Shown piece after piece: positions 8,241 to 31,885 of a stretch of DNA of 64,000 bases (the stretch's first letter is position 1; every line of letters begins with the position of its first letter). The position numbers and the translations under genes were made by a program. Location: NCBI GenBank assembly GCA_009602735.1, contig WELA01002286.1, positions 104,409 to 168,408 on the forward strand. Direction: 5' to 3'. The DNA is from Mesotaenium endlicherianum (Eukaryota). The notes under the pieces are model-generated. The model was not told where the DNA came from, searched no databases, and saw only the letters and a list, made by a program, of their open reading frames with translations.

Positions 8241-8564
8241 ATATCAGTAGAGTCCTAGGCCTGGTATGCCATCCACGTCCAACAATGTTATGCTCCTTAA
8301 CGTGAGCATGTGCACCCAAATGTCCAGGGGGCCTAGGTGGCCAACCAATGCAACAACAATTTGCCAATAAAAAATCATAAAAAGTAATCATACCAAAAAA
8401 TATAAATTTTCCATGGAGGTTAAAGGCCTGGTTAACAATGTCCAACTACTCACACTCCAAATAACAAAAAATGCTATTAACGCTGGGGCTGGCCATAAGG
8501 CCCCTGGAAGTTTGCTACCTGAGCTGGTGCTAGCAAAGGCTGCCTCTGTTGGGGGCCTGGGCCA

Positions 8565-9400
8565 TTAGGTGGCCCCGAAGGGCAAAAAATGAGATGTGTG
8601 GCCTACCATGTGGCAGTGCCAGCAACTCAAGTCATTTCTAAACATCCTAGGAGCGCGGGGGTTAGCCTTAAACGCATACGGGCTGGCCCGTGGTTTGCGG
8701 CTACTAAAATCAAACTCCCTCTCCTCCTCTTTGTCCTTACTCTTAGCCACTTGCTTTTGGACTCGATTCTCCCAATCCTCGTTCTCATCCTTAGTTTGCA
8801 TGGACTTGACAACCTCATTAATTACAGGCCAGCTATGCAAGTCCGCGAAAATGATTTGCTTTTGCCGAAAAATTATCACCGACAAACCTTCAGTGAGCGC
8901 GCTTTGGGCCGCTTCAATGTCTTCCTTGTCCAGCGCATTTGAGCGTTGTGGCACAGCTCCGCGAGGTTGTTCATGACCTTCATTTGGGCGCGGTTGCCCT
9001 CAGACAACTTGCCCACACCTGCAACCTCACTTTTCCTCTTGAGCCGCTTGAGCTGCTGCAGGATGTCCGCCCCTGCTCCCTCGCCATCGTGAGCTCGCGA
9101 GACCTAGCTTTGCGCTAGTTTGCTCACTGCCTGCTGTAACTTGGCCATTTCGAGATGAGCAGCGTGCTGCGCAGCTTTGAGCGCAGCCGCTTCCGTCTTG
9201 CTGAGCTCGGCCTACTCGCTTTCGTACTCTTTAAGGAACTCTGCATGTAATTTGGCAATTTCGTCAGCAGTAAGCTGGCTCGCTACTCTCGCCCTACCGA
9301 TGTCGTTAATCTGCTCCCCATTGACCTGCTCGCCATCATTGCGTAAGTCGCTCGGGCCTCCCTGGCTTCCCTCACCTCTCTCCGTCATCGCTCGTAAGTG
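8565..9400 (-). pseudogene. Gag relic of a tyrosine-recombinase (DIRS/Ngaro-type) retrotransposon
   Basis: EGLSVIIFRQKQIIFADLHSWPVINE...DENEDWENRV resembles the G-x-LI-xx-RQK-x-I-xx-AD-x-W-xx-V-x-E motif of DIRS/Ngaro ORF1. It is followed by a CCHC-type knuckle CWHCHMVGH. Upstream frames are broken and no RT or recombinase is seen nearby. Confidence 0.55.
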
Positions 9401-10000
9401 AGCAAACACGTCCGAGTCTTGAGTGTTCGCGGATCTATGGAACTCTATCAAGCGAATTTGTATGCCTGACATAAGATTGTTTGAGTAAGTCTCGGCATGC
9501 AATGTCTACCCGGGTATGTGTAGCAACTACCTTCCTGCTGCAATGAGGCTTCTTTGCAACAAGAAGCCTTATGAGGGTTTCGTTTGTCGATGAGACAACA
9601 CGTGTGAAATCGATCAAATTTGAACACTTGTCAAATTTTATTTTGCGACATTTCATGTCGCAAACCTTCAATTTGACTCTTTTCAAGTTGTAAGTCGAGT
9701 TCATGTCAACTTTGATAAAGTGGGCAGACTGAAAACTTTCAGTCAAGTTGTGACGATGGAACTTTGTATGAAGATAAAGTTTGAACTTTTGACAGCACTT
9801 TCAGACTCATCGACCAATGCACATATGAACACTTGTGTGGCGGCAGTACAGAAGCAAAGAGACAGCTGCATACAAGAAACATACGATCATATATAAAATT
9901 TACACGCCAAACAATGAGGCACATGACATGTGCTTACCTACTTTATCAATATCGTTACACCAACGGCACGACCTCCATCGCAAAACCAGCAAATAACCTA

Positions 10001-11340
10001 CTAGTCTAGAAGGGCAGCAACGGCTGTTGCAGCGTCGCGACTAATACTCTCTAACAAAGTGCTATACTCGTCGGCTAAGCCCTGCACAGTGGCCTGGGAG
10101 TAGAGGTCGGTGTTGTAGACAAAGAGCCCCTCGAGCCCGCCTCCGGGCAAAACCTTCACCCCCAAGCCGATCTCCGACTTGGCAAACTCATACCCTGCCT
10201 GATCTGCGGGCTCCACCACCAGACCTGGAAGGCCCGACGTGCCGAGGCCGCCTTCATAGTCCACCTCGTCCAGCGTGAACCCTGTCTGGACCAGGGAGGC
10301 CCTGCTTGTGTCAGCGGCAGCAGAATCCGGGACCAGTGCCTCCACAACGCGGACAAATGGCACGTCCTGGTTGTCAAACGCCTCCAGCACACGCACCCTG
10401 ACTTGGGCCAGGAGGTCCACGAACGTGACACCTGGCGCAAACGTGGCAGCTGCCACCACTGTGTTCACAAACATGCCCAGCAGAGGCTCCAGCTGCGCCC
10501 GCACACGGCCTGCCACGTCAAACGCCACCAGGACCTTCTCCTGGTTGGTGCGGATGTGCAGCAGCGCCTGGTACGCCGCCAGCAGCACCATGAACAGCGT
10601 GCCGCCGTGCCTCTGGCCGACCCTGCGGAGGCCCTGAGCCACCTCTGCGCCGACCACAACCGTCACGCTGCCCCCCCGGTGGCCGAGCACGACTGGCCGC
10701 TCCCAGTCCGTCGCCAACTGCAGCGGAGCCGGGTTGAGGCCTACTACGTCTTGCCAGTACGCCAGCTGGCGATCCAAAAGCGCACCAGACACGAGCTGCC
10801 TGTGCCACAGAACGTAGTCGCCGTACTGCACCGCGAGCGGTGGCAGCCCATCCAGAGACTGCAACTTGTAGCAGTGCGCCAGCTCGGCGCAGAACGGCTC
10901 CGTGGACTCGCCGTCAAATGCCAAGTGGTGCATCGTGAGGAGAAGCACGTGCTCATTCGGTCCCAACGCTATCACGAGGCCTCTGATGGGCAGCGACTGC
11001 GGATCCGTCAGCTGGAAGGGCTTGTTTGCCTCCTCATTGGTCATCCTCGTCACCTCAGCGCCCTGCGTCTCCCCCTCCGGCAGCTCCGAAATGTCCACGA
11101 GCGGCAGCCTGAGTGGCACCTCACCTGCCGGCCGCACAACCTGCACCACATCCCCGCCTTCCTTCACACGGTAGAACATCCTGAGGGACTCGTGCCTGTC
11201 TACTATGAGGCTGACAGCTGTCTCCAGGCGCACCACGTCTAAATCCCCTCTGACCCTCCATGCATAGGGTATGTTTTCACTGCCAGGTGTCTGCAGCTCC
11301 TTGGTCCACGTGATCTTCTGGGGTCCACTCAAGGGCAGCT
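10001..11340 (-). other. NRPS terminal condensation domain
   Basis: MHHLAFDGES (10925-10930), QLAYW, FMVLLAAYQALL, GMFVNT, NQDVPF, FVYNTDLYS, then a stop. No TE or reductase domain follows. Confidence 0.9.
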
Positions 11341-14300
11341 CCCCGTTCTCAAGGCCCGACCGATCCATGGCTGTCAACGGGGGGCCCTGCTCGCCCACCT
11401 TGGAGCCGGCCAGCGCTGCGGCCACGCCTGCCACCGTGGAGTCCTTGAAGAAGACGCTCATGGGGAGGCTCTTGTGCAGCTGCTCCGTCAGCATGGCCAG
11501 CACGCGCACCGCCATCAGGCTGTTGCCGCCCATGCGGAAAAAGTCCGTGCTTGGAGTGACACCTGGCCCTGCGACAGTGCCCAAGACCTCTGCAAAGACT
11601 CCCGCCACCACCTCCTCCTGCTGGCTGAGGGGCCGAGCGGGGCCCTGCGTGGAGGCGCCTCCACCTGTCAAAAACGCTTCCCTCGTAGGCGGCGGCAGCT
11701 TCTTGCGGTCGATTTTACCCGACACGGTCTGCGGGAACTCGTCCATGACCACATACGCCGACGGAATCATGTAGGAGGGCAGCTTCGACACAGCCAGCTG
11801 CTGGACGGCGTGCGCGTCCAGGAGAGCCTCCACCCGGCCTGCACTCTCTGCCAGTGCCGGAGTGAAGTAGGCCACTAGGCACTGCTGCCCGTTGGCATCC
11901 GCCCTCACTGCCACAGCGGCCTGCCCGATCCCCGGCGCCGACGCCAGCACATTCTCGATCTCCCCGAGCTCGATGCGGTTGCCCCTCAGCTTCACCTGCC
12001 ACGCGGCGAAAGGAGAAGAATGATCTCACAGCCCAACAGTTCCTCGGTGCACACCTTGCTTGGCTGCATGTGCGCACACTACTCACACACACCGCTACCA
12101 CGAGCGCCGCCCGGCTGCATATACCAAACGCTGGCACCCAAAAACACATACTGACACACAAATAGACATAATCATAGCATGGAAACACGGAGAAAATGAT
12201 GACGAGCAACGTTTGTGTGTTTTGGGGTAGTTATATGCCAGGCAGTGGGCACTAGGTGGGAGCGAAGGAGCAAGCACAAGGGGCCATGCGGCTTACCTGC
12301 GAGTCCATGCGGCCGAGGAACTGCAGGTGGCCGCTGGGCAGCCAGCGGCAGAGGTCACCCGTGCGGTACATGCGCGCGTCGTGCGCCCCCGTGCTGTACG
12401 GATTGGGGACGAACTTCTCCGCCGTCAAATCGGGCCTGCCCAGGTAGCCCTCTGCCACCTGGATGCCGGCAATGCAGAGCTCTCCCGGGACGCCAACTGG
12501 CAGCAGTTCCGCATGGGGCCCCAGCACAAACGGATACACGTTGGCCAGGCCCTTCCCAATGGTGTCGAACACCTCATCCCCTGCTCCCCAGAGCATGGCC
12601 GTGGCGGTGACGGCTGTCTCCGTGGGGCCGTAGCCGTTGACGCACGTCACGCCCTCGTCAGTCCACTTGCGGATGAGGGACACGGGCACGGCCTCCGCGC
12701 CCAGATCAATGACCTTGAGGCCGGGCGTCTGGGCGGGCTGCAGCGTGGCCACCACCGTGGGCGTGGAAACAGCGTATGTCACCCGGTTGGTCCGCAGGAA
12801 CGCGCCCAGGTCCGTCAGCAGCTCCTCCTTGGAGCAGATTGCGAGCGGCACGCCGTACGCCAGTGCCAGGAACACCTCTTGGACGTGCACGTCGAAGACG
12901 CTGGGTGCCAGCTGGGCCACACAGGTGTCGGCATCCCAGGGCAGGAGGGCCTGGTATGCGCGCACGAGATTGACGACTGACCTGTGCGCCAGCTGCACGC
13001 CCTTGGGCTCGCCCGTGCTGCCGCTCGTGAACAGCACGTAGCAGATGCTCTCGGGCGTGGGCCTGTGCGCCTCCAGGTCCACGTTCCCATGTCCTGCTCC
13101 TGCAGCAGGCTCCTCCAGCGCATCGAGCGCCGTGACCTCCACGCCCTGCTCCGACGGCAGCCAGGCCAGGAGCTCCAAGTGGGCCGCTCCGGACAGCACC
13201 ATCGCCAGCCCCGCCTGCCGCACGATGCTCTCGGTACGCAGCCGCGGGTATGACGGCTCCATGGGCACGTAGCCGCCGCCCACCATCAGCACGCCCAGCA
13301 TGGCCGCCACCCACTCAACGCTGCGGTCAAACACGAGGCCCACCAGCTTGCTGGCCTGCCCCTTGGCCGCCACGTGCGCCGCCACACGCCGCGCCAGCCG
13401 GTGCACTTCCGAGAAGGTGGCGCTGCGGGCCCCATCCACGACGGCCACCCGCGACGCGTCCTTGGCCACCTGCGCCTCGAACAGCTCCACCAGCGTCGCG
13501 GCGGCCACCTCCCCTCCCTGCTCCTGCTCCTCCTCCCCGGCCCCGTCGCTGGCCAGGCCCGCAAACGTCCTCAGGACCAGCTCGCGTTCGTCCGGCTGCA
13601 TGACCGCCAGCTGGCTCAGCGGCGAGGCGGCGTCTCTGCAGATGGAGCGCAGAAGCTCCTGGAAGTGTGACGCCAGCCGCTCGGCGGTGGCGGGGGCGTA
13701 CAGGTCGGCGTTGTAAACGAGCTCCCCGCTCAGGCCGCCATCCTCGACCGTCTCAAGCCCCAAGTCCAGCTCGAACTTGGCGGAGACGCCGCCGCCCCCG
13801 TCCAGCGTGCCCAGCACCTCCACCCCAGCCAGCTGAAGGTCGCTTTCCAAGCTGCCCTTGCCCTCCTCCAATGAGAACATGGTCTGGAAGACGGGCGACC
13901 TGCTGGAGTCCCGCGTGGCCGACACCTGCCCCACGACCTTCTCAAAGGGCACGTCCTGGTGGTCCAGCGCCCCCAGCACGCGCGCCCTCACGTGCGCCAG
14001 GAGGTCCGCAAAGCTCGCCTCTCCCCTGCCCTCTGCAGCCCCCTGAGCCGCCAGGAGCTCGAAGTCAGCCACCGCCACGACCGTGTTTACGAACAAGCCC
14101 ACCACTGGCTCCAGCGCCGCCCTCACCCTGCCGGCAGTGGGGAAGCCCACAATGACGCGCTCCTGCCCCGTGTAGCGGTGCAGCAGCGCCTGGTACGCCG
14201 CCAGCAGCACCATGAACAGCGTGCTGCCGTAGCGCGCCGCCACCTGACGCAAGGCCTCCACGGCCGCCGCCTCCAGCGACACCCTAACGGTCGCGCCCCT

Positions 14301-17300
14301 GTGGCTCTCCACGCCCGGGCGCACGAAATCTGTGGCTAGCTGCAGTGGCTCGGGGTCCACGCCCAGGAGCTCCTTCCAGTAAGCCAGCTGGCCCTCCAGC
14401 ACCGCGCCCGACATGTAGCGACGCTGCCAGACGGCGTAGTCCACGTACTGCAGGGGCAGTGCGGGCAGCCCCTCCGCCGACCCGTCCTTCTCGTAGCAGT
14501 GGGTGAGCTCCTCAAAGAAGACGCCTGCGGACTCCCCGTCAAACGCAATGTGGTGCATCGTCAGCATCACTATGAAGCGGTCCCCGCCCTCCCGGACAAC
14601 GGCCCCCCGAATGGGCCAACTGTCGGGATCGTTGAGATCAAACGGCGCGGCCGCCTCCTCCTCCACCAGCGCCTCCACCTCCGCCGCCTTCCCCTCCTCC
14701 GGGCGGCCGGAGACGTCAAAAACGGCCAGCTTGAACGGCCGGCTGCCCGCGCCTGCAGAAGACCGCACAAACTGCAGGGGCACGCCCGCCCTGCTGCTGC
14801 CATAGGTCGTGCGCAGCACCTCGTGCCTCGCGACGACGGCCGCCAGCGCACGCTCCAGCCGCGCAACGTCCAGGGCCCCGCTTACGCGCCATGCGGCGGG
14901 CATATTGTAGTGGGAGGTGCCCCCGCCTTCGATCTGGTCCATGACCCACATGCGGTCCTGCGCGAAGCTCAGTGGCAAACCCCCGCCGTCGTCGGCCGCC
15001 ACGGCCGCCCTGTCCACCACGCCCAATGGGGGCTCCTCCTTCCCCGACGAGCGCAGGGCGGAGACAAGGCCGGCCACTGTTGAGTTGTGGAAGAAGTCGC
15101 CCACGGTGAGGCTCTTGCCCAGCCGCTCCCGGACCAGCGACACCACGCGGATGGCCATGAGGCTGTTGCCGCCCAGCCCGAAAAAGTCAGACCGCGCGCT
15201 GATGCCCTTGGCGCCGCCCACGGTCAGCACCTCCGCAAAAATGCCGGCCACCATCTCCTCCTGCACCGTCAGCGGCCGCGCGCTCCCCCCGCCGGCCGCA
15301 CCCGAGGCCGAATAGAACGCCTCCGCCGTGGGCGGCGGCAGCTTCTTGCGGTCGATCTTGCCTGACACCGTCTGCGGGAACTCATCCAGCACCACGTACG
15401 CGGTGGGCACCATGTAGCTTGTCAGCTTGGAGGCCGCCACCTGACGCACACCCTCCACGCTGAACGCCGCCCTGTCCTCAGGGCAAAGGTACGCCGTCAG
15501 GTGGTCCCACCCGGCCTCGTCCTTCTTCACCAGCACCACCGCCTGGCCCACGCCCGGCGCCTGGTCCAGCACGTTCTCTACCTCGCCCAGCTCGATGCGA
15601 TTCCCCCGCAGCTTCACCTGCAGACATGCCAGGGCAGATCAGATTCAGGCTCCGCCCACATACAAAGAGATAACGACCTCGTCCTGCACACCTGCAACCG
15701 TGTGAGGTGTTGGTGGCAGGTAACACTGTGCAGCAGTCATGCAGGTGCACTCCATAAGGAGAGGCCGGCGCCTGCTTTGGTCCCCTTCTCCCTTCACACA
15801 TGCATAGAGTGCGACAACAGCTGCGCTGTTGCCTTACAAGTGCAGCAGTCCCTTCGCCCCCCGGCAGACAACAGGACAGTGTAGGCATGCCACTCACTTG
15901 CGAGTCCATGCGGCCGAAAAACTGCAGGTGGCCGCTGGGCAGCCAGCGGCACAGGTCGCCCGTGCGGTACATGCGCGCGTCGTGCGGCCCCGTGCTGTAC
16001 AGATTGGGGACAAACTTTTCCGCTGTCAAATCGGGCCTGCCCAGGTAGCCCTTGGCCACCTGCACGCCCGCGATGCACAGCTCGCCCGGGACGCCGATGG
16101 GCAGCACCTCCCCGTGGTGCGCGCCCAGCACCAGCGGGTAAACCTGCGGCAGGCCGGTGCCGATGGTATCAAATACGTCGGCGCCCGCCTCCCAGAACAC
16201 GGCGGTGGCCGTCACCGCCGTCTCCGTGGGGCCGTAGCCGTTGACCACCGTGGTGCCCGCGTCTGTCCAGCGGCGGATGAGCGCCACGGGCACGGCCTCC
16301 GCGCCCAGGTCCAGCACCTTCAGGCAGCTGGCCTGGCTGGGCTGCAGCCCCGTGGCGAGCGTGGGCGACGTCACCAGGTACGTCACGCTGTGCTGCGACA
16401 GGAACGCGCCCAGGTCCGTGAGCAGCTCCTCCTTGGAGCAGACGGCCAGCGTGGAGCCGCACGCCAGCGCCAGCCACACCTCCTGCACGTGCACGTCAAA
16501 CACCGACGCCGCCAGCTGCGCCATGCAGGCCGTCGCGCCCGCCGGCAGCAGCCTCCGGTACGCCTGCACCAGGTTCACCACCGAGCGGTGCGCCAGCTCC
16601 ACGCCCTTGGGCTCGCCCGTGCTGCCGCTCGTGAACAGCACGTAGCAGCTGTCGTCGGGCGAGGGCTTGCACGCCGTCACCTGGCTCTCTTCTCGGGGCT
16701 CCGCCGGGGGCAGATCCGTGACATCCACCAGCACCAGGGGCACCGCCGCCGCAGCCATCCAGGCGAGGGCGTCCAGGTGCGCGGGCGTGGTAAGCACCAG
16801 GCTTAGCTGCGCCTGCTGCGACACGCTCTCCATGCGCCCTCGCGGGAACGTGGGCTCCATGGGCACGTAGCCGCCGCCCGCCATCATGATGCCCAGCATG
16901 GCCGCCACCCACTCCACGCCGCGGTCCATCACCAGCCCTACCAGGCGGCCGCCCTGGCCCTGGGCAAGAAGGAATGCCGCCACCTGGAGGGCGAGCGCAT
17001 GCACCTCCTGGTAGGTGGCACTGCGCTCCCCCGACAGCACAGCCACCTTCTGTGGGGACGCCGCCGCGGAGGCCAGGAACAAGTCCACCAGCGTCTCCTC
17101 GTAAGTCTCCACCTCCCTGCCCCCGCCGGAGAACTTGTGTAGCACCATGGCCTGCTCCTCCGCGCCCATCAGCGCCAGCTGGTGCAGGGGCAAGCCGGCT
17201 GCAGCCGCGGCCGCCCGCAGGAACTGCTGGTAGTGGCCAGCCAGCCGCTCCACTGTCTCCTGCGAGAACAGGTCCACGTTGTACTCGAGGACACCTGTCA

Positions 17301-20300
17301 GCGTGCCGTCGCCCTCCTTCTGCAGGCTGAGGTCGATCTCGAACTTGGCGGCACCCATCTCCTCCGCCAGGCTGCCCGTCACAGCGACACCTGGTAGCGT
17401 GATAGTGCTCGCTTCCGCCAGCGTGAACATCGTCTGGAAGACCGCGGACCGGCTGGGGTCGCGCACCGTCACGACGTCGGCCACCACCTTCTCGAAGGGC
17501 ACGTCCTGATGGTCCAGCGCCTCCAACACGCGCGCACGCGTCTGCTTCAGGAGCTCCAGGAACGTCACCTCGCCCTTCTCTCCAAAGTCGGCAACGGCCA
17601 CCACGGTGTTGACGAAGAGGCCCACAACGGAGTCCAGCTGCGCCAGAGTGCGCCCGCCCACAGGGATGCCCACCAGCACGCGCTCCTGCCCCGTGTAGCG
17701 GTGCAGCAGCGCCTGGTACGCCGCCAGCAGCACCATGAACAGCGTGCCGCCCGTCTGCTGCCCCAGCTGGCGCAGGTCCCTGGCGAGCGCGGCATCCACA
17801 GAAAAGTGCACGCTGGCGCCGCGGAAGCTCTGCTTGATCGGCCGCGGGAAGTCCAGTGCCAGCTGGAGCGGCTCGGGGTCGACGCCTATCAGGTCCTTCC
17901 AGTACACCAGCTGGCGGCTCAGAGCAGCCCCCGACATGTACTCCCTGTTCCACGCCGCAAAGTCTGCATACTGCAGCGCCACGGGCGGCAGCGTCTCCGC
18001 ACTGCCCCCCTGCTCATAGACGTGTGCGAGCTCGCGGAAGAAGACGGCGCTAGAGCCCTCGTCGAACGCGATGTGGTGCACCGTCAGCATCAGCACCCAG
18101 CTGCTGGCCCCGCATTTGGCCACACGCCCACGCATCAGCAGGCTGCTCGTGTCATCTATGTGGAAGGGCGTCTGCGCCTCCTCCAGGAACAGCCACTCCA
18201 CCTCCGCCTCCTGTTCCTCCGGGGCCAGAGGGGCCAGGTCCACGACAGGTAGACTGAAGAGGCTTGCCTTGTCCTCCTCCAGCACTACCTGCTCACACGC
18301 GCACACACACAGGCACACGCAGATGGCATCGTCGTCTTTAGGAGCAGCAGGAGGTGCTGTCTCAAGGAAGAGCAAGCCGTGAGTGCACAGGGGAGCAGGC
18401 CATGCCAGGCAAGGAAGGCTCTCTGAGTCGAGCTTCATTTCATGCCATCGCTGAAAGTAGGCCCCACCCGACAGGAAGGGGGTCACACACCTGGACAGGG
18501 GTCCCATCGTGGCTGGCGTAGAGCGTGCGCAGGGCCTCGTGGCGCGCGATGAGAGCGCGCACGGCCGACTCCAGGCGGGGCACGTCCAGCGCGCCCTCGA
18601 TGCGCCACGCAAACGGGATGTTGTAGTGGGCGCTGCCCCCGCCGCCCTCCAGCTGGTCCATGGCCCACATGCGCTCCTGCGCAAAGCTGAGCGGCAGCCT
18701 GCCCCCGTCCCCGGCCAGGAGGAGCGCCCTGTCCAGCGGGACGAGGGGCGGAGGCGCCGCACCGCCGCTGTCGGCACCGCCGCTGGCGTTGACGGCGGTC
18801 GCAATGCCGGCCACGGTGGAGTCGTGGAAGAAGGTGCCCACGGTGATGGCGCGCCCCACGCGCTCCTTCACCAGGCTGATCACCTTGATGGCCATCAGGC
18901 TGTTGCCGCCCATGGCAAAGAAGTCGCTATGCGGCCCGACGTCGGCGATAGCGTCACCGCCGCCTGCGAGGCCCAGCACCTCCGCAAACACGCCGGCCAC
19001 CACCTCCTCCTTCTGCGTGAGCGCGCGCTCGCCTGCCTTGACGGCGCCGCCCGACAGAAATGCCTCGGGCGGGGGCTGGGGCAGGTTCTTGCGGTCCACC
19101 TTCCCCGACACGGACTGCGGGAAGTGCTCCATGAGCATGTACGCGCTGGGCACCATGTACGTGGGCAGCCGCGAGGCCGCCACTTGGCGCACGGCCGCAA
19201 TGTCCACTGTGGATGCCTCGCCAACGGAGGGCCTCACATACGCCGCCAGAAAGAGCTGCTGCCCTTCGTCCTTCCTCACCATCACAACCGCCTGGCCCAC
19301 CCCCGGCGCCTGGCAGAGGGCGTTCTCGATCTCCCCCAGCTCTATGCGGTAGCCGCGCATCTTCACCTGCACCACGCACCAGGGCTCGGTTGTCAGCAAC
19401 ACTACCACATCCTCCAGGGGGCCCACCACTGACGGACTTGTCTCTGCTCACTCACTCTCACGTCACAGGGAAGGGCAGGGAGGCGGGGGTGGCGGGCACC
19501 GCACCTGAGAGTCGAGGCGGCCGAGGAACTCGATGTGACCGCTGGGCAGCCAGCGGCAGAGGTCGCCCGTGCGGTACATGCGCGCGTCGTGCGGGCCCTT
19601 GCTGTACGGGTTGGGCACAAACTGCTTAGCCGTCAGCTCCGGCTTGTTGAGATAGCCCTGCGCCACCTGCACACCGGCGATGCAGAGCTCACCAGGAACG
19701 CCCACCGGCAGCACTTCCTGGGTCTTGCGGCCCAGGATGAAGGCATACACCCCGGGCAGCGAGGCCCCGATGGTGTCGTACACCTGCGCCCCCGCCTCCC
19801 ACACCATGCGCGTGCACGTCACCGCCGTCTCCGTGGGCCCGTACGAGTTGACGACCAACACGCCCGCGCTGGTCCACCGTGCGATGAGGCTGACCGGCAC
19901 GGCCTCGCCGCCCATCTCCAGAAACTTCAGCCCCGGCGCCTGCGACGGCTGGATGGTGGCCACCACCGTGGGCGTGGCCTGGATGTACGTGGTGCGCGTG
20001 CGCTCCAAGAAGCCCGGGAGGTCCGTCAGCAGCTCCTCCTTGGAGCACACGGCCAGCGCGGCGCCGTGGCTGAAGGCCAGCCACACCTGGTGCACGTGCT
20101 GGTCGAACACGGCGGGCGACAGCTGGCCCACCACGCTGCCCTCGTCCAGCGGCAGCAGGTGCAGGTACGACTTGACCATGTTCACCACCGAGCGGTGCAC
20201 CAGCTCCACGCCCTTGGGCTCGCCCGTGCTGCCGCTCGTGAACAGCACGTAGCAGATGCTCTCGGGCGTGGGCCTGTGCGCCCGCAGCGCCGCTCGCTCG

Positions 20301-23300
20301 CCCTCGCTCACGGGCGGCATGTCGGCCACCACCGCCACCTCCACGCCCTTCTCCGCCGTGAGCCACCCGAGGCCCTCCGCGTGCTCTCCTGACGTCAGCA
20401 CCAGAGCCAGCTTGCCCTGGCTGGTGATGCTCTCCACCCTCAGGCGCGGGAACGACGGCTCCATGGGCACGTAGCCGCCGCCCGCCATCATGATGCCCAG
20501 CATGGCCGCCACCCACTCCACGCCGCGGTCCATCACCAGCCCCACCAGGTGGGGAGCATCCTGGCCGCCGCTGCCGCCTCTGCCTTTGCCAGCCCCGGCG
20601 GCGGCGCTGCGCCGAGACGCCACAAAGCAGGCCACGCGCTCGGCGCGCGCGTGCATCTCCGCGTACGACACCTGGCAGACGGCGGCATCCACGACGGCCG
20701 TGGCGTCGGGGCGCGCGCGCACCTGCGCCTCGAACATGTCCCACAGCGTCTCGGAGTGCACGGCCACGGGGCGGTACACGCCGGAGAACTTGTGCAGCAC
20801 CAGCGACTCCTCGTCCGCGCGCATGAGCGGGATCTCGTGCAGCGGGTCCTTGGCGTTACGCGGGATGCAGCGCAGCAGCTCCCGGTAGTGCCCCGCCAGC
20901 CGCCGCATGCTGGCCGCCGAGTACAGGTCCGTGTTGTACTCCACCACGCCCGCCAGGCTGCCGTCCGCCTGCCGGTCCAGCGACAGCTGCAGCTCAAACA
21001 TGGCCGCTGCCGACCCGAACGAGAGTGGCGTGACGTCCGCGCCCGCCACAAATTGGCTGTTGGAGCTAGAGATGGCGGCGCCCGCGCCCTCGTCCAGCGA
21101 GAACATCGTCTGGAAGACCGCGGACCGGCTGGGGTCGCGCACCGTCACGACGTCGGCCACCACCTTCTCAAAGGGCACATCCTGGTGGTCCAGCGCCTCC
21201 AGCACGCGCGCGCGCGCCTGCTGCACCAGCTTCACGAACGACAGGTGGCCGCCGTCACCGCCCTCAAAGTCGGCCACCGCCACGACCGTGTTGACGAAGA
21301 AGCCCACCAGGCTCTCCAGCTGAGGGTGCACGCGTCCGGCCACGGGGATGCCCACAATGACGCGCTCCTGCCCCGTGTAGCGGTGCAGCAGCGCCTGGTA
21401 CGCCGCCAGCAGCACCATGAACAGCGTACCGCCCGTCTGCTGCCCCAGCGCCTGCAGCGCCGCCACAGCGTCCGCGTCCACAGAGAGGCTCACGCTGGCG
21501 CCGTTGTGCGTTTGCTTGGCGGGGCGCACAAAGTCGGTGGCCAGCTGCAGCGGGTCCGGGTTTGGGCCGATGAGCTTGCGCCAGTACGCCAGCTGCTCCT
21601 CCAGGCGCGCACCCGACACGAAGGTGCGGTGCCAGATGGCAAAGTCTGCGTACTGCACGGCCATCTGCGCCAGTCCCTCGGCCGTCGAGAACTCGTAGCA
21701 GTGTGCCAGCTCGCGGAAGAATACGCTGTTGGACACGCCGTCGAACGCGATGTGATGCACCGTCAGCAAGAACACGCACGACGCTGCTGTCGCGTTCTCC
21801 TCCTCCTTCAAGTCCTCCTCCACCAGGACGCCCCGCAGCGGCAGTCCCGCCGGATCGTTGAGGTCGAAGGGCGCCAGCGCCTCCTTCCTGGCCAGACGCC
21901 GCACGGCCCCGTCCTCCTCGCCTTCCGCGCTGGCACCGCCCCCGTCAGCCTCCGACAGACGGAGGGTGCGGATCTTGACCTCCACGTCCTCGGCCCGGCG
22001 CACGATCTGCACAGGCGCGCCCTCCACCGTTGCAAAGTAGGTGCGCAGGATCTCGTGGCGGCCCAATAGGGCCGTAAGCGCTTGCTCCAGGCGCCCCAAG
22101 TCAAGGTGCCCGCGAATGCGCCAGGCAAAGGAGATGTTGTAGTGCGCGCTTCCACCCTCCAGCTGGTCCATGGCCCACATGCGCTCCTGCGCAAAGCTGA
22201 GCGGCAGCTTCCCGTCCTTAAACTGCGCGCGCGCTACGGCCGTGAGCGCGGGCCCCTTGCTGATGGCGCGGCCCGCGTGGATCTGCGAGGCCACGCCCGC
22301 CACGGTGGAGTTCTGGAAGAAGCCGGCCATGGAGATGCTCTTGCCCAGCCGCTCGCTGATCAGCGCCAGCACGCGGATGGCCATCAGGCTGTTGCCGCCC
22401 AGCCCGAAGAAGTTGGCGTGCGGCCCAACGCGCACGCTGGCCTGCAGGCCCAGCACCTCCGCAAAGATGCCGGCCACCACCTCCTCCACCTGCGTCATCG
22501 TGCGCTCGTCGCCCAGCGCCAGGCCGCTTGTCAAAAAGGCGTCGCTGGTGGGCTCCGGCAGGCGGCGCCGGTCCACCTTGCCCGAGACGGAGTGCGGAAA
22601 CTCCTTGAGGACCACGTACGCGGCGGGCACCATGTACGCCGGCAGGCGCGACGTGACGGCCGTGCGCACCTCCCCAATGTCCACCTCCACGCCCGAGTGC
22701 GGCCGCAGGTACGCCGCCAGGTACTGCTGCTGCTGCGCGCTGTCCTTGCGCAGCATGGCCACGGCCAGGCTCACGCCAGGCGCCTTGCAGAGCGCGTTCT
22801 CAATCTCGCCCAGCTCGATGCGGTTCCCCCGCAGCTTCACCTGCACACGCAGCAGCCGCCACCGCCACCAGCAGGACAAGGGTGAGGGCGGGGGCCGAGG
22901 ATGCGAACAAGGGCAGGGTATATTGCTGGGGGGGCAAAGCATGCAGCTGCCCGGCAGCAGCGGCTTCACCATTGTATGTAGCGGCAACAACAGGGTGGGG
23001 CTGGGGGGCAGGCCGGCTGACCTGCGTGTCGATGCGCCCGAGGATGTGGATGGAGCCGTCGGGCAGCCAGCGACAGAGATCGCCCGTGCGGTACATGCGC
23101 GCGTCGTGCGGGCCCTTGCTGTACGGGTTGGGCACAAACACCTTGGCATTCAGGTCAGCCCTCCCCAGGTAGCCCTCAGCCACCTGCACGCCAGCCAGGC
23201 AGAGCTCCCCCGGCACGCCGATGGGCAGCAGCTCCTGGTGCGCACCCAGCACGTACGCATACACGTGCGCCAGGGGCCCACCGATGGTGTCCGTGGGCTC

Positions 23301-26300
23301 CGACCCCGCTGCCCACACAGTGCGCGTGACCGTCACCGCGCACTCCGTGGGACCGTACGAGTTGACAACTGTCACGCCTGCTCGCGTCCACCTGGCAATG
23401 AGGCCCACAGGCACGGCCTCACCGCCCATCTCCAGCACCTTGAGGGACGGCGCCAGAGACGGCTCCAGCAGGTCGGCCAGCGTGGGCGTGGCCTGGATGT
23501 AGCACACGTCGTGGCGCGACAGGAACCCCGCCAGGTTCGTCAGCAGCTCCTCCTTGGAGCACACGGCCAGCGCGGCACCGTGACTGAAGGCCAGCCACAC
23601 CTGGTGCACGTGCTGGTCGAACACGGCGGGTGATAGCTGGCCCACCACGCTACCCTCGTCCAGCGGCAGCAGGTGCAGGTACGACATGACCATGTTCACC
23701 ACCGAGCGGTGCGCCAGCTCCACGCCCTTGGGCTCGCCCGTGCTGCCGCTCGTGAACAGCACGTAGCAGATGTCGTCCACAGACGGCCCGCCGTGCGCAG
23801 CCACCTGCGCCGCGTCGCCTGGCGCGGGCGCCAGCGTGTCCACATCCAGGACGCTCACGCCCGCCCCGCCCATCCAGTCCAGGCCGGCCAGGTGCTTGGC
23901 GGTGGTGAGCACAAGCGCCAGCCGTGCCTGGCTGGCAATGCTCTGCATGCGCACCACCGGATAAGACGGCTCCATGGGCACGTAGCCGCCCCCCGCCATC
24001 ATGATGCCCAGCATGGCCGCCACCCACTCCACGCCGCGGTCCATCACCAGCCCCACCAGCAGGCGCGTGCCCCGCCCCCCTTCTCCCTCCTGCTGCAGCT
24101 GCTGCTGCTGCTGTTGGCGGTGGTGCAGGACGGCGGCAGCGACGGCCGTCGCCTTCTCGTGGAGCTCGCGATAGGTCACGCGGCCAACGGCGTCGTCAAT
24201 GACGGCCACGGCCTCGGGCGCCGCGCGCAGCCGCGCCTCAAAGAGGTTTACCAGAGTCTCGGGGTACGCCTGGAACGGCACCTGCGCGCCGCTGAAGCGC
24301 TCCAGGACCAGGGCACGCTCCGCCTCGTCCGTGAAGGGCAGCGCCTGCAGGGGCACGCCCATGTCGGCGTCGCGGGCGGCCGCAAACGCCAGCAGCTGGC
24401 GGTAGTGGCCCGCCATGCGCTCCACAGAGGCCTGCGAGTACAGGTCTGTGTTGAACTCCAGGCAGCCGCCCACACTGCCGTCGTCGCGCTTGCTGAGCAT
24501 CAGGTTGAGCTCAAACATGGCGGCGCCGGTGAACGTGGGGATGGGCGTCACGGCCTCCATGCCCGGCAGCGCCAGCGAGGCGCCCTCGCCCAGCGTGAAG
24601 CCCGCCTGGAAGACGGGCGAGCGGCTGGGGTCGCGCACCGTCACCAGCTTGCCCACCACCTTCTCAAAGGGCACGTCCTGGTTGTCTAGTGCCTCCAGCA
24701 CGCGCGCGCGCGTCTGCTCCAGCAGCTGCAGGAAGGTCAGGCCCTTCTCGCCCGGCGCCGCGTCCGCAAACTCGGCGACGGTGACCACCGTGTTGACGAA
24801 GAGGCCCACGAGCGGCTCGATCTGCGCACGGATGCGCCCGGCCACGGGGATGCCCACCAGCACGCGCTCCTGCCCCGTGTAGCGGTGCAGCAGCGCCTGG
24901 TACGCCGCCAGCAGCACCATGAACAGCGTGCCGCCCGTCTGCTGCCCTAGCGCCTGCAAAGCCGCCACCTGGGGGGGGTCTAGATGCAGCGGCACGTAGC
25001 TCCCGCTGTGCGTCTCGCGCGACGCACGCACGTAGTCCGTCACCAGCTGCAGCGGCTCGGGGTCCTGGCCAATGAGGCCCTCCCAGTAGCCCAGCTGCTG
25101 GCTCAGCAGGCCGCCGCCGCTGCCCACGTAGGCGCGGTGCCACACGGCGTAGTCCACGTACTGGATGCTCATGCGTGGCAGGCCCGCCAGGTCGCCGTGC
25201 TCGTACAGGTGCGCCAGCTCGTGGAACAGCGTGCCCTCTGCGCCCTCGTCAAAGACGCTGTGGTGCAGGGTGAGCAGCACCACGTGCTCGCGCGCACCCG
25301 CGCGGATAACGGCGCCGCGCACCAGCAGGCTGCGCACGTTGCCGAGGTTGAAGGGCAGCTGCGCCTCCTGCCGCACCAGACGCTGGATCTGCAGCTCCTT
25401 CTCGTCAACGTCGCCATCGCCGTCCAGCTCGAAGACGGGCAGGTTCATGGTGGAGTCCTCCACGGGGCGCACCGTCTGCACGGGCACGCCGTCCTCCGCC
25501 TTGTACACAGTGCGCAGGATCTCGTGGCGCTCCAGCAGCAGGTTCAGCGCGCGCTCCAGCCGCGCCACATGCAGGGGCCCGCGCACGCGCCACGCGTACG
25601 GCAGGTTGTACTGCGAGCTGCTGCCGTCCAGCTGATCCATGACCCACATGCGCTCCTGCGCGAAGCTGAGCGGCAGGAAGCCCTGCCGGTACTGCGCGCG
25701 GTCGATGGCCACCAGCGGCGCGCCCGCGGCCTTGACGGAGTCGCGCCCCGCCAGCGCGCTCGCCACGCCTGCCACCGACGACTGCTTGAAGAACTTGCCC
25801 ACCGTAAGCGTCTTGCCCAGCCGCTCGCGCAGCAGCGCTATCACTTTCACTGCCATCAGGCTGTTGCCGCCCATCTCGAAGAACCCAGCCCCCGCGGGGA
25901 TGTCCGCCGCCGCAGCCGTCCCCAGCACCTCCGCAAACACGCCCGCCACCGCCTCCTCCTCTGGAGTCCTTGCCCTCCTGTCCCCCTCCTCCTCCCCCTG
26001 CTCGCCTCCCTCAAAGCCGCCCCCGGGGATGTGGAACGCCTCGGGCGGCGGGGGTGGCAGCTTCTTGCGGTCCGTCTTGCCGGAGACGGTCTTGGGGAAC
26101 TCGTCCAGCACCACGTAGGCAGCGGGCACCATGTAGGCAGCCAGGCGCTTGACGGCCGTCTCGCGCACCAGGCGCAGGTCCAGCGGCGTGGCGGGGTCCA
26201 CGGGGCTCACGTACGCCACCAGGCTCTGCTGGAACACGGTGCTGATGGCCTTGGCCACGCCGGGCGCCTGGCACAGCACGTTCTCGATCTCGCCCAGCTC

Positions 26301-29300
26301 GATGCGGTTCCCCCGCAGCTTCACCTGCCCACGCAGCAGCCGCCACCGCCACCAGGCCGGGATGCTCAGTCACCTACCCTTTTGCTACTTTCGTTTCACA
26401 CCCTCCCTGCTTCCCCCCAGTTTCTCTCCTGGGGAGCAGAGTGGAAGCTTTATCTCCCTGAGGTAGCAGAGATATGCATGCATGCGCACCACCTGATTGC
26501 TCAAGGGGTGCCAGGCTTGCAACCGACCCACTGACTGACGCACGGCACTACCCTGTGGAGGACATCCCAAACAACACTAGCGTCGCGTCCCGCCACTGGG
26601 GAGGAGGAGGGGCGAAGGGGGATGGGCAGAGAGAGCGCACCTGGAAGTCGATGCGACCGAGGAAGTGGATCTGGCCGTCCGGCAACCAGCGGCAGAGATC
26701 GCCCGTACGGTACATGCGCGTGTCCAGGCTGCCGTTGGCGCCGCTGCCGCCCATGGCGCTGAGGCCGCTGCTGTAGGGGTTCATGGCAAACTGCTTGGCC
26801 GTGGCCTCCGGCCGGTTGAGGTACCCCTGCGACACCTGCACGCCCGTCAGGCACAGCTCGCCCGGCACGCCGATGGGCAATGCCTCCAGGTGGGGCCCCA
26901 GCACGTATACGTTGACACCTGGCAGGCTGCGGCCGATGGTATCCACCACGCGGTCCCCCCGCTTCCAGACCTTGTTGAGAGCAGTGACGGCGCACTCCGT
27001 GGGACCGTAGCCGTTGACGACTGTCACGCCCTCGGCAATCCACTTGGTGATGAGGGGCACGGGCACAGCCTCCCCGCCAAATTCCAGGATCTTGAGGGTG
27101 GGCGCCTGGCTGGGCTCCAGCAGCGCAACGACTGTGGCCGTGACCTGGATGTACGTCACGCGGTGGCGCATGATGAAGGCCCCCAGGTCCGTCAGCAGCT
27201 CCTCCTTGGAGCACACGGCCAGCGCGGCGCCGTGCCCGAGCGCCAGCCACAGCTGCTGCACGTGCAGGTCGAACACGGACGGCGCTACCTGGCCTATGAC
27301 GTCGGCCTCCGTCAGCGGAAGCTGCGCCAGGTAGGACTTGACGATGTTCACCACCGAGCGGTGCGTCAGCCGCACGCCCTTGGGCTCGCCCGTGCTGCCG
27401 CTCGTGAACAGCACGTAGCAGGCGCTGTCCAGCTCGGGCGCGCACGCGGGGACCGCGTCGAGCGCCCCCGGCGAGACGTCCGGCAGCGCCCTGAGGTCCA
27501 GGAGCGCCACGCCCTTCTCCTCGCGCTGCCACGCCAGGTCGTCCGCGTGCTCCGTGGTGGTGAGCACAAGCGTGAGCCCCGTCTGGCGGATGATGCTCTC
27601 CATGCGCAGCCGCGGATACGACGGCTCCATGGGCACGTAGCCGCCGCCCGCCATCATGATGCCCAGCATGGCCGCCACCCACTCGATGCCACGGTCCACG
27701 ATGAGCCCCACCAGCTGGCGCCCTGCCCCCGCCAGCCCCCCCTGCGCGCGCCCGTGCTCGGCCACGAGGGCGGCCACGCGGAGCGCCAGGTCCTGTAGCG
27801 CCATGTACGTGATGGTGCGCTCGCCGTCCACCACGGCCACGTTGCTGGGCGTGCGCGCGCACTGCGCCGCAAATAGGTCCACCAGCGTCTCGCGGTGGGG
27901 CGCGTAGGGGCGTGCGGCACCCGAGAAGGTCTGCAGCACCGTGTGCATTTCCTCTAAGCCCATCACGCGCAGCTCGTGCAGCGGCGCGCTGGCGCTCTTG
28001 CCCGCGGACGCCGCCAGCTCCTGAAAATGCGCCGCCAAGCGCTCCGCCGACTCGCGCAGGTACAGGTCCGGGCGGTACTCCAGCACGCCGCTCACGCTGC
28101 CATCTGCGCTCTCGCTCAGAGCCAGCGCCACCTCCGCACCCCCCCAGCCGTCCCGGGCATCGTTGTCGCCGCCTGCCAGCTGGCTGACGACGCGGCTGCC
28201 TTTGACGAGCCGCGCGCTGCTGAGCACAAACGCCGCCTGAAAGAGGGGCGCGCGGGCCGGGTCGGGCGCGGATACCAGGGCGCGCACAAGCTCGCCCAGC
28301 GGCAGGTCGCGGTGCTGCACCGCGTCCATAAGCTGCTCCCTCATCTGCTGCACCAGCTCGATGAACGTCATGGCCTTGCCCTCCTCGAAGGTGCCGACTG
28401 CCACCAGCACGCCACCGTTTGCCTGGCTGGCAACGGCGCCTGGCGCCTTCGAGGCAGCCCCTATAGGGAGCCCTACAGACAAGCGCTCCATCCCGGTGTA
28501 GCGCTGGAGGAGGGCGGCAAAGGCAGCCAGCAGGACGGTGAAGAGGGTGGCGCCCTGGCGGTGCGCCAGGCCATCCAGGGCATGGACGACGTCGGCGCTG
28601 ACCTGGACGCTGATCTGGGCCTTGTGGTGGGTCAGCACGTTGGGGCGCGGCAGGTCCGCCACCAGCTGCAGGGGCTCGGGGTCGCCCTCGATGAGCCCCG
28701 TCCAGAAGGCCAGCTGCTCCGGCGCCGAGAACTTCCTCCTGCTGGCCGCTTTCAGGATCTGCCAGTGGGGGGGAGAGCACAGTTGGTGGCTCGCTTCGTC
28801 ACAGGTTCCACCATGTGCGGAGAAAGGGACAGTTGTTGCACCCTTGATCAAGCAGCATTCCCAATAGCGTACGACCATACGTTTCACTGACAACAAATAC
28901 TTGATGCTCACAACCATTGAGGGAAAGTGAAATTGAGTCACACGGGAAGCACTGCCCAAGCGCGTGCCCATGATCCGATTCAGAAAGAGAGAGAGAGGGA
29001 GAGAGAGAGTGTGACCTGGGCAATCCAAGAGGGGAAGACGGCGTGCGCGTCGCCGTCCAGGCCCAGGGAGACAGCCAGTCCCTGCAGGCCCTGCGCCAGG
29101 CCTTCGTGCGTCACCTCCACCGCGCTCCCCTCCTCGCTGTCGTACTTGAGATAGGCCAGGCTGCGCAAGGAGGCCTGCGGAGCGGAGTCGCGCCCATTCT
29201 GGTGCCCGTTCATGTCGCCATTCTCCGCATGCTTCCCGCTTGGCGGCTCGCTGGGAGGGACATCGATGAGTCGAGGAGTGGCAGCGCTGGTCTTGCATTG

Positions 29301-31885
29301 GCTGCCACCGCGACTGGGCAGGCCGCCACTAGTAGACTCCGTCGGCTGCACAAGCCAGCAGCGAGGATCAGCGGCTGTAATGAGTGCTATCTGCAGCCCA
29401 GTCTTGATGATGACAACACACCCCCCCGGCTGCTGTGACATCACTCGGTTGTCCTTCCCTCTCTCCATCTCCAGGTTGAGCGCACCCCCCCGCAGACTGA
29501 CTCCTCATCCACACTCTGCGACTGCCATGCAGTGGGTCAAGGGAGGGGCAGGCTGCAGCACCCAGTGCCCTCCCTCCCAGCTGCTGCAAAGCCCATGAGG
29601 AGAAGGGAAAGGGGATGACTCATGAGCATGAGCAGCAACGGCAGCACTGGATCGAGAAATCAGGAGCGCAGGCTGGGGGAGCACTAGCACCTGTCGGGGC
29701 GAAGGGGAGGGGGAGGGGGAGCTGGGGGAGGAGGAGGAGGCGAAGCTGTTGGGCAGCACATGCAGCTGCTGCGGGGCGCCTCCTCCCTCCCGCGAGCTCA
29801 GCGCCTCCACAAACTCAAAGTACTCCGCAGTTGTCAGCCCGGCAGTCACGCCGCTTGCCGCCACCACTGCGGTCAGATGCTCCGCCAGCAGATCGGACAG
29901 CTCCGGGAGCTCGACCGGCACGGGGACCACACCTGGCAGCACCATAGCAGGGCGCCACAGCACTTGCCACCCGGCCAGTCAGCCCATCGTCGCACCCACC
30001 ATCTGCAGGGCGCCCGGTGCCAAGAGAGGCCTGGGAGGGGGCTCAGATGGAGGCGCTGGTTGGCAGTAGACCTGAGCTCTAATCAGTAGCAGCAAGGGAG
30101 CTTGACACGCCCCCAGACAGAGAGAGGGACACCTGTCATCCCGCAAGAGAGGAAGCACAGGGACGGCCAGGCAGGCCCTTCCTGGACAACCGGCCACAAG
30201 TGTGACCTGGAGGACGAGAACAATGGCATAGAGAAGAAGGGAGGGCGCGGACGAGGAACACACTGGGTGGCAGACATGGGTAAACCCCCCCCCACCCCCC
30301 CCCACCNNNNNNNNNNNNNNNNNNNNNNNNNNNNNNNNNNNNNNNNNNNNNNNNNNNNNNNNNNNNNNNNNNNNNNNNNNNNNNNNNNNNNNNNNNNNNN
30401 NNNNNNNNNNNNNNNNNNNNNNNNNNNNNNNNNNNNNNNNNNNNNNNNNNNNNNNNNNNNNNNNNNNNNNNNNNNNNNNNNNNNNNNNNNNNNNNNNNNN
30501 NNNNNNNNNNNNNNNNNNNNNNNNNNNNNNNNNNNNNNNNNNNNNNNNNNNNNNNNNNNNNNNNNNNNNNNNNNNNNNNNNNNNNNNNNNNNNNNNNNNN
30601 NNNNNNNNNNNNNNNNNNNNNNNNNNNNNNNNNNNNNNNNNNNNNNNNNNNNNNNNNNNNNNNNNNNNNNNNNNNNNNNNNNNNNNNNNNNNNNNNNNNN
30701 NNNNNNNNNNNNNNNNNNNNNNNNNNNNNNNNNNNNNNNNNNNNNNNNNNNNNNNNNNNNNNNNNNNNNNNNNNNNNNNNNNNNNNNNNNNNNNNNNNNN
30801 NNNNNNNNNNNNNNNNNNNNNNNNNNNNNNNNNNNNNNNNNNNNNNNNNNNNNNNNNNNNNNNNNACCCCCCCCCCGTTTTCCAGAAAAGAATTAAAAGA
30901 AAACAAAATGACAGCAATCGGCCCGCTGCTACCGAAGCTAGTGAAGCACTTGCGCAGCAGCTTGCAGACAGGCAAAGAAGCCCAGCTGCTGCAGCGGTCA
31001 GGCGATCCCGCCTGGCTCAAAATGCTCGAGGCAAAGAGCCCCTAGTCAGATCTTGGGCGTTTTAACTCACAGTATCTAGACTGCGCCCGTTACGTGATGT
31101 GTGTATACATTCACATTTCCATAGGGCAGGGGGCGGGGGTGACATCCCTTAATTATGCTTCTGACGACCCGGGTGCACAGCCAGCTGAGAAGGTACCAAA
31201 AATAGGTTCACGGTCCCACCCTTAGGCCCCCTGCCTTGCGTGCGACTGTGTCTGCTCTGTCCCTTACCTGTCAGGTAACACAGCGGGTATCTGAGTGAAA
31301 AGGAAGGGAAAGGGGGCACTTTTAGTACGCATCTCATTGACGTCAGACAACTCCCAGCTAGCTACTCCAGCCCAGGGTCAAAGAATACCGGCGCTAGGCT
31401 GAAGATCAGAAATGGCCTTCTTCTTATTCACACTGACCTGCATATAGACATGCGAGAAATGTGCATGCCAGCTGTGGTCCAGGAGGAAATGCGAGGAGGA
31501 CACGCGTCTCTCTTCTGATCTGCAAGACGGCAGTCAGCTGTTGCTCCACTGCCAGGACCTTCTGGCGGAGATCCTTGTACGTGCAGGTAACCTCATCGCT
31601 ATGTCCATTCACAACCGGAATGCCAACTGCACCGGGCGTCCTTCGGGATATCGACAACCAACGGAGGGCGACGTCATCGGGGTAATTGATGGCAGCTTCT
31701 TCTAAGAAAGAGATTAGAGTCTGAGGGGAGTGCTTTGATATTCCCCCACTGGTGCCATGACTCTGCAGCCAGATTGGACTGTTACTGAAAGATCGAGGAC
31801 TACTAGCAAATCCATGACTAATCCGTCTTATTAATGCACCATACGGTGGAGCTCTTTCTATATTCAGAGGGTAAGCAGGTGCCAT
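10001..31885 (-). CDS. Five-module NRPS, ~6,119 aa, 10 exons: 31885-31438, 29932-29691, 29345-29016, 28758-26641, 26324-23022, 22840-19505, 19366-18491, 18288-15898, 15617-12297, 11995-10001
   Basis: Five A domains (YVLFTSGSTGEPKG, N[G/S]YGPTE, RMYRTGDL, GRxDxQVK, SGKxDR), five T domains (FFxxGGNSL) and five full C domains (HHxxFD[G/E]) plus a half C. All nine junctions are GT-AG and phase-compatible, with no internal stops in the spliced frame. Exons 4-10 are high confidence; the exon 2/3 boundaries are inferred. Confidence 0.93.
11410..14980 (-). other. NRPS module 5: C-A5-T5
   Basis: C MHHIAFDGE (14550-14555), A5 FDVHVQE, T5 FFRMGGNSL (Ser 11519-11521). Boundaries approximate. Confidence 0.92.
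15055..18705 (-). other. NRPS module 4: C-A4-T4
   Basis: C VHHIAFDEG (18073-18078; this C has a private intron 18490-18289), A4 FDVHVQE, T4 FFGLGGNSL (Ser 15162-15164). Boundaries approximate. Confidence 0.92.
18790..22210 (-). other. NRPS module 3: C-A3-T3
   Basis: C VHHIAFDGV (21752-21757), A3 FDQHVHQ, T3 FFAMGGNSL (Ser 18899-18901). Boundaries approximate. Confidence 0.92.
22285..25680 (-). other. NRPS module 2: C-A2-T2
   Basis: C LHHSVFDEG (25260-25265), A2 FDQHVHQ, T2 FFGLGGNSL (Ser 22388-22390). Boundaries approximate. Confidence 0.92.
25750..28758 (-). other. NRPS module 1: C-terminal half of a C domain + A1 + T1
   Basis: Starts at EQLAFW...PLQLVADLPRP with no HHxxxD lobe. A1 has FDLHVQQ. 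T1 is FFEMGGNSL with the Ser codon at 25860-25862. Boundaries approximate. Confidence 0.88.
28985..29009. repeat. (GA)n microsatellite in NRPS intron 3
   Basis: agagagagagagggagagagagag read directly. Confidence 0.75.
29016..31730 (-). other. NRPS N-terminal FAAL (fatty acyl-AMP ligase)-like domain, truncated and degenerate (exons 1-3)
   Basis: TLISFLEEAAINYPDDVALRWL...TYKDL...VLLAFPPGPQLACTFLACLYA|GVVPVP...HLTAVVAASGVTAGLTT...LAYLKYDSEEGSAVEVTHEGL...FPSW is colinear with the N-terminal half of FAALs. The TSGSTGxPKG loop is lost and the domain stops at the SW(LP) position. Confidence 0.75.
30307..30865. other. Assembly gap (559 N) flanked by poly-C runs, within predicted NRPS intron 1
   Basis: Run of N with C-homopolymers on both sides. 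Confidence 0.99.

Follow-up and report, generated by a model that had tools for sequence, protein, structure and literature searches.

Within a 64,000-nucleotide stretch of the genome of the streptophyte alga Mesotaenium endlicherianum (assembly GCA_009602735.1, contig WELA01002286.1, positions 104,409 to 168,408; the window), the minus strand carries a gene for a large nonribosomal peptide synthetase (NRPS). Six long minus-strand frames containing Condensation, AMP-binding and PP-binding domains (Pfam) were the source of the gene model, which comprises five modules, each with an adenylation (A) and a thiolation (T) domain, and six condensation (C) domains or parts thereof (Table 1). They are preceded by a remnant resembling a fatty acyl-AMP ligase (FAAL).

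Table 1. Features of the window, in coordinates of the 64,000-nucleotide stretch.
Feature	Position	Strand	Details
Spliced NRPS gene	10001..31885	-	10 exons, 6,119 aa, 0 internal stops (GT-AG joining)
Exons 1-3, degenerate FAAL-like remnant (aa 1-340)	29016..31885	-	truncated, P-loop lost, no carrier domain
C1, C-terminal half of condensation domain	27964..28758	-	Pfam Condensation profile 193-444 only; no HHxxxD
A1 (DLQQEGGVTK) + T1	25758..27888	-	intron 26640-26325
C2	24333..25673	-	motif HHSVFDE
A2 (DQHQEGSVTK) + T2	22286..24257	-	intron 23021-22841
C3	20825..22204	-	motif HHIAFDG
A3 (DQHQEGSVTK) + T3	18797..20749	-	intron 19504-19367
C4	17170..18694	-	motif HHIAFDE; intron 18490-18289
A4 (DVQVDGGVTK, Ala302) + T4	15060..17094	-	intron 15897-15618
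C5	13572..14975	-	motif HHIAFDG
A5 (DVQVDGGVTK, Ala302) + T5	11417..13496	-	intron 12296-11996
C6, terminal condensation domain	10004..11335	-	motif HHLAFDG; stop codon directly after
Rhodanese-like gene	2652-6965	+	seven exons, well covered; six introns, all GT-AG and seen in RNA
Ty3/gypsy pieces	37236-40536, 51524-54413, 56940-57515	-, +, -	protease, reverse transcriptase, RNase H, integrase, SH3; separate frames

The synthetase gene and its domains

Eight of the nine NRPS introns are spanned by RNA reads, with polyA libraries among their sources; the ninth (29015-28759) adjoins a repeat at which the reads are truncated, and the same junction is present in the public gene model. Reads over the gene in stranded runs are chiefly minus-strand, and their depth declines steadily from the 3′ to the 5′ end, which fits one long polyadenylated transcript. 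The gene has a GC content of 68% (GC3, at third codon positions, 88%), compared with 39-54% in its flanks, and 20 of 24 listed sequencing runs (6 studies, one organism) contain the stretch, 3 of them possibly being its source. Bacterial contamination was considered and is ruled out by the GT-AG introns joined in RNA reads, the spliced rhodanese-like neighbour and the Ty3 remnants, the latter two marking the stretch as host DNA. The NRPS is a spliced, transcribed gene of a zygnematophyte alga (Zygnematophyceae), a group that the available text of PMC12448838 describes as sister to land plants.

When 1.84 billion representatives were searched with a profile, the top match was P0121, identical to our NRPS model from residue 150 onwards. 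It is labelled jgi/Mesen1 ME000131S00500, which we take to denote a Mesotaenium endlicherianum gene model, so the gene already exists as an automatic prediction. The first 65 residues of P0121 differ from the RNA-supported exon 1 (31438-31885, minus strand), which encodes the FAAL-like start and has 18 reads across its splice junction; the public model probably has a wrong 5′ exon. An assembly gap of 559 N (30307-30865) lies within intron 1, and RNA reads splice directly over it.

The domains follow the order FAAL-like remnant, half C1, A1-T1-C2-A2-T2-C3-A3-T3-C4-A4-T4-C5-A5-T5-C6, stop. Core motifs of the A domains (A3 P-loop, A5, A7 and A10 Lys) and Asp235 are intact in all five, as is the active-site Ser in all five T domains, and HHxxxD is present in five of the six C domains, C1 being the one without. 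Pfam finds no thioesterase (TE), reductase (R) or epimerisation (E) domain in the NRPS, which ends with C6. At the front, the remnant matches NCBIfam PRK05691 (7-87, E 3.7e-4), PRK12476 (E 0.019) and Pfam AMP-binding (E 7.7e-6), with further matches to N-terminal FAAL domains, all FAAL matches being weak; an intact FAAL-initiated lipopeptide start, with P-loop, acyl carrier protein (ACP) and active starter C domain, was not found. C1 shares 107 of 244 residues with the second half of C3.

Four of the five active C domains carry an additional Glu at the end of HHxxxDG or directly behind it (25265, 18078, 14555 and 10930, minus strand), in the form DEG in C2 and C4 and DGE in C5 and C6. Among 803 bacterial C domains, DEG occurs in 2 and DGE in 12.

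Module duplication and origin

All five modules contain a phase-0 intron at the identical place, after motif A8. The cores of A1-A5 are 60-68% identical to one another, compared with a mean identity of at most 0.40 to 1,389 other A domains, and they form one clade with a support of 100/100 in an IQ-TREE tree (48 rows chosen from 139), in which A2/A3 (100/95) and A4/A5 (99/96) are sister pairs. C2-C6 likewise form one clade (support 1.0). From the shared intron, the similarity of the A cores and these two clades, we conclude that a single module already containing the intron was duplicated within the alga, and the grouping of C6 with C2-C5 suggests that this terminal domain is derived from the other C domains of the gene.

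Every organism-named protein among the 120 matches listed for module 5 is bacterial, which fits acquisition from bacteria; the NRPS is likely of bacterial origin, with no donor singled out in the unrooted comparison. Close relatives were not found: the best matches to module 5 reach 42% identity in proteins of 609-1,941 aa, and those to the pocket region 42% in proteins of 703-2,005 aa. Nothing but the public model of this gene stood out among the 1.84 billion representatives, in a ranking by total score that could miss a relative of one or two modules. The ESM Atlas gave generic AMP-binding clusters only, and a metagenome search gave 2 distant loci from 166 pattern matches. One metagenome contig (L001, 1-1361) holds a C-A fragment of an NRPS, 32% identical, spread over three frames as if split by introns, and is possibly from another eukaryote.

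Pocket codes and their nearest relatives

A sequence-only reading of this DNA had assigned the ten-residue pocket codes by manual alignment to GrsA, and motif-based extraction returned the same letters at all 50 positions. In a phmmer search, the A5 pocket region has GrsA (1AMU) as its top match, without gaps around positions 235/236/239, 278, 299/301, 322 and 330/331, and alignment of A3 to the second A domain of LgrA recovers the published code DIANLCIIYK in the same register. The spacing from Asp235 is equal in all five domains (+41, +62 and +86). A register error in the manual alignment is ruled out by these two alignments, which do not show the shift of pocket residues named beforehand as a possible refutation. 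The interval given for the codes (12590..27300) is slightly too short, since Lys517 of each A domain lies in the next exon, beyond the intron, and its codon in A5 (11716) falls outside. That reading compared the codes with bacterial ones only and mentioned neither the host, nor the splicing, nor Ala302 of A4 and A5. An AlphaFold model of A5, made on a five-row alignment, had a pLDDT (predicted local distance difference test) of 58 and was not used.

As had been claimed, all five domains have an acid at position 299, Glu in A1-A3 and Asp in A4 and A5 (codon starts on the minus strand: 27084, 23432, 19918, 16311 and 12707), and Asp235 in each predicts alpha-amino acid substrates. A4 and A5 have Ala at the conserved Gly302, whereas A1-A3 combine Gly302 with Glu299. 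The repeated codes (A2 = A3, A4 = A5) agree with the earlier prediction of two repeated residue pairs; this X-Y-Y-Z-Z pattern follows module ancestry (the sister pairs A2/A3 and A4/A5) and is tied to relatedness. Between A4 and A5, silent differences occur in 6 of the 10 code codons while all ten residues are preserved, which suggests selection for one common substrate. No code codon differs between A2 and A3; the 50 columns at the start of their pockets are 96% identical, and silent change there is 11%, compared with 25% for the module as a whole, suggesting either gene conversion or selection.

These patterns bear on the view that the code is uninformative, with Asp/Glu299 a structural mark of the lineage, the pockets promiscuous or some modules skipped, and the product something other than X-Y-Y-Z-Z. 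The residue at 299 can point away from the substrate, identical codes track ancestry, the A2/A3 pocket start looks as it would after gene conversion and decay has already set in at the front of the gene. However, the preserved residues of A4 and A5, the intact catalytic motifs of A1-A5, T1-T5 and C2-C6 and a frame open over 6,119 codons speak against it, and we regard this view as improbable.

Characterised codes were taken from signature tables S3-S21 of PMC12283262 and compared by eye (the paper counts 508; a few pages are textless). An acid at 299 occurs in 1 of the ~508 signatures, that of the Trp domain of LgrD (DVSSEGCVGK), and in 15 of 1,221 A domains of the bacterial matches (49 have a gap at this position, and several of the 15 seem to be misaligned). 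By their letters, the algal pockets lie outside the characterised code tables, in line with the earlier remark that they were not recognised as standard bacterial codes. Most signatures for basic substrates have an acid at 239 or 278, as do 31 of 46 domains with a G-[GSAT]-[VI]-[TS] tail outside the gut-anaerobe family discussed below. The algal domains all possess the tail typical of basic-substrate pockets (Gly301, a small residue at 322, Val/Ile330 and Thr/Ser331), while an acid at 239, 278 or 331 is missing from all five (Gln/His239, Gln/Val278, Thr331), the acid being at 299 instead. Nearest to A4/A5 are DGEVCGGVTK, DGEVVGGVTK and DVESIGGVTK (hydroxy-ornithine, Arg/homoarginine), each with 7/10 letters; nearest to A1 are several GGVTK codes for the same substrates (6/10), and nearest to A2/A3 is the Lys code DTSDIGSVTK (6/10). 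The proposal of basic or polar substrates is supported indirectly, by the nearest codes (Orn, hydroxy-Orn, Lys and Arg) and by the closest pocket region (below), and not by the acid at 299 that had been offered as its reason, for which the sole precedent is Trp.

That precedent favours another possibility, in which the same enzyme binds neutral polar or aromatic hydrogen-bond donors (Gln, Asn, citrulline, His or Trp) and residue 299 acts as a hydrogen-bond acceptor rather than a counter-ion. The pockets of A1-A3 are amide-rich through Gln/His239 and Gln278, the latter also being present in several Gln codes, and DVSAIGCVTK and DVQCIGDVCK match A4/A5 at 6/10. The best matches are nevertheless still basic or hydroxy-ornithine codes, and most Gln/Glu codes combine Asp331 with a bulky residue at 322, in contrast to the Gly/Ser322 and Thr331 found here; we consider neutral substrates unlikely, though less so than an uninformative code.

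The closest pocket regions among the matches (0.39-0.41 identity) belong to the cationic homopoly(amino acid) synthetases Pls, PosA and Bdello_A. The two closest have the codes DSECYGGVT and DLESIGTVT, and PosA is among the top five Protein Data Bank matches for the A5 pocket. These enzymes share a G-[GT]-V-[TSI]-K tail with the algal domains. In the available text of PMC10522769, the Bdello_A domain (DSECYGGVTK) has modest L-Arg activity, and the position of the acid within the code can vary. The same text describes Glu239 and a membrane polymerase domain in these synthetases, neither of which was found in the algal NRPS, with its Gln/His239, acid at 299 and C-A-T modules.

One match, P0285, has the code DLQTDGGVT, and a search from it led to an NRPS family of gut and rumen bacteria that ends in a reductase. 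Its named members are Bacilli, Erysipelotrichaceae and Lachnospiraceae, and two of its clusters have 755 and 1,668 members. An acid occupies 299 in 122 of 238 A domains of this family, and Ala302 is present in 117 of 121 domains with the acid, versus 6 of 114 of the rest, a pairing that points to deliberate pocket design. The codes (DLQTDGGVT, DAQFDGGIT, DVMTDGGIS) share at best 7/9 letters with A4/A5, and in the algal enzyme the combination of Asp299, Ala302 and a G-G-[VI]-[TS] tail is found in A4 and A5 only. The A cores of the two groups are 31-37% identical; they lie apart in three FastTree trees and in the best IQ-TREE tree, and a joint clade is not rejected (approximately unbiased test, p of 0.42). 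On these comparisons, shared descent and convergence both stand as explanations of the likeness. The gut-anaerobe enzymes have one to three modules and reductive release, in contrast to the five modules and terminal C domain of the alga. Their conserved neighbours (MatE-HATPase, SpoIIE-HATPase and, in some loci, a phosphopantetheinyl transferase) gave no clue to the substrate, which was also not found in print. In loci L005, L006, L010, L013 and L014, the NRPS is followed by SpoIIE-HATPase and usually MatE-HATPase genes.

Candidate product and its rivals

We tentatively favour, at somewhat below an even chance, a five-module algal NRPS that assembles likely basic residues of the Orn/Lys/Arg type into a pentapeptide X-Y-Y-Z-Z, all-L and unacylated. 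A1-A5 would load three kinds of L-amino acid in gene order. Small residues at 301 (Gly) and 322 (Gly/Ser), together with Val330 and Thr331, would leave a long pocket with Glu/Asp299 at its floor as counter-ion, replacing the usual Glu239 or Asp278, and the longest residue would be the one taken by A4 and A5 (Val236, Ala302). Peptide bonds would be formed by C2-C5, and C6 would free the finished chain, either closing a macrolactam or passing it to a free amine. With the FAAL dead and C1 halved, no lipid would be added in cis, and the residues would stay L: we infer these features and release by C6 from the absence of FAAL function, of an E domain and of TE or R domains. Its likely role would be that of a cationic peptide for defence or surface binding. 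A bolder version, a cationic cyclic pentapeptide in a streptophyte alga whose basic side chains are recognised through a new acid-299/Ala302 chemistry shared with the widespread gut-anaerobe NRPSs, is possible, though more doubtful.

Several points weigh against the basic pentapeptide. None of the Orn, Lys, Arg, 2,4-diaminobutyrate (Dab) or 2,3-diaminopropionate (Dap) signatures in the tables of PMC12283262 has an acid at 299, agreement at 6-7/10 letters is a weak match, and A4/A5 score 6/10 with Pro and aromatic codes as well. In the PosA structure, as described in the available text of PMC10522769, Asn280 (position 299) makes no contact with ornithine and Glu221 (position 239) is essential, whereas the algal position 239 is Gln or His. 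A FastTree link that would place the algal A domains in descent from Pls/PosA domains (support 0.56-0.87) was not recovered by IQ-TREE, which leaves descent and a sister relationship unsupported. C6 is like the fungal terminal cyclising C domain in position only, standing after the last T domain, since the SHxxxDx motif of those domains (PMC10510592, available text) is missing (HHLAFDG in C6). HHxxxDE, as in C2 and C4, favours small acceptors such as Gly according to the available text of PMC8097023; in our sample it is a weak sign, a Gly-type code following 3 of the 25 C domains with this motif, versus 49 of 803 overall, and it was set aside. Eukaryotic NRPS codes are also reported to be unreliable (PMC7073580, available text).

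A hydroxamate siderophore made from N5-hydroxy (acyl) ornithine, by an enzyme descended from a pyoverdine-type FAAL-NRPS, is quite unlikely. GGVTK is the tail of pyoverdine-type hydroxy-ornithine codes (7/10 to A4/A5), the best match of exon 1 is the start of PRK05691, presumably the PvdL family, and fungal siderophore synthetases end in T-C. FAAL-initiated bacterial NRPSs of the PRK05691 type, with A domains for pyoverdine hydroxy-ornithine, share the FAAL-like start, LCL-type C domains and the GGVTK tail; unlike them, the algal enzyme has lost the P-loop, has a halved starter C and lacks ACP, E domain and Glu239. Every DGE-GGVTK hydroxy-ornithine code has Glu239. No oxygenase or acyltransferase was seen among the window open reading frames (ORFs) scanned, although eukaryotic pathway genes need not cluster. 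In the gut family, with its A4/A5-type pocket, no conserved hydroxylase was found in the 30 of 87 neighbouring ORFs scanned at 6 loci; anaerobes perhaps use this pocket for an ordinary metabolite, which would make hydroxy-ornithine less likely. With Glu239 absent, the FAAL dead and no hydroxylase seen nearby, the siderophore-like chelator suggested earlier has little in its favour.

The cyclopentapeptide synthetases MpcA and MpbA of Mortierella alpina, as presented in the available text of bioRxiv 10.1101/2020.08.21.262279, resemble the algal NRPS in being eukaryotic, intron-containing, five-module and of bacterial type, with a truncated N-terminal C domain that lacks the HH motif and with codes unlike bacterial ones. 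They differ in being fungal, releasing by TE, using dual E/C domains and having mostly hydrophobic pockets, with Arg bound via Asp331; the algal enzyme has a terminal C domain, no epimerisation, a FAAL-like remnant and an acid at 299 in every module. Algal NRPSs in the available text of PMC4661987 and PMC7073580 are likewise rare, multidomain and without assigned product. A table in the former lists no NRPS for Klebsormidium, its one streptophyte, and the largest algal NRPS there has 10 domains, compared with 15 intact A, T and C domains here.

In the literature searched, multimodular NRPSs are rare in algae and none was found described for streptophyte algae. The searches, which covered Mesotaenium, streptophyte algae and mosses or ferns with NRPS, left this gene undescribed (a listing in the genome paper, supplements or later algal surveys is possible), and NRPS terms are absent from the main text of PMC10505561, PMC12448838 and PMC13069868. 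With an intact, expressed NRPS in a zygnematophyte that is kept in culture, the question of whether nonribosomal peptides are made in the plant lineage, and for what, can be tested directly. Its pockets add a code class beyond the characterised tables that recurs in about half of the A domains of the gut and rumen family, and if the acid-299/Ala302 chemistry is truly common to both, decoding A4 and A5 would decode that family too.

Among the neighbouring features, the rhodanese-like protein has an N-terminal extension that resembles a plastid transit peptide. Just downstream of the NRPS lies a repeat (8483-9455) with one frame containing a Cys/His knuckle-like motif. RNA reads cover this repeat and differ from it at many positions, and they are probably transcribed from another copy.

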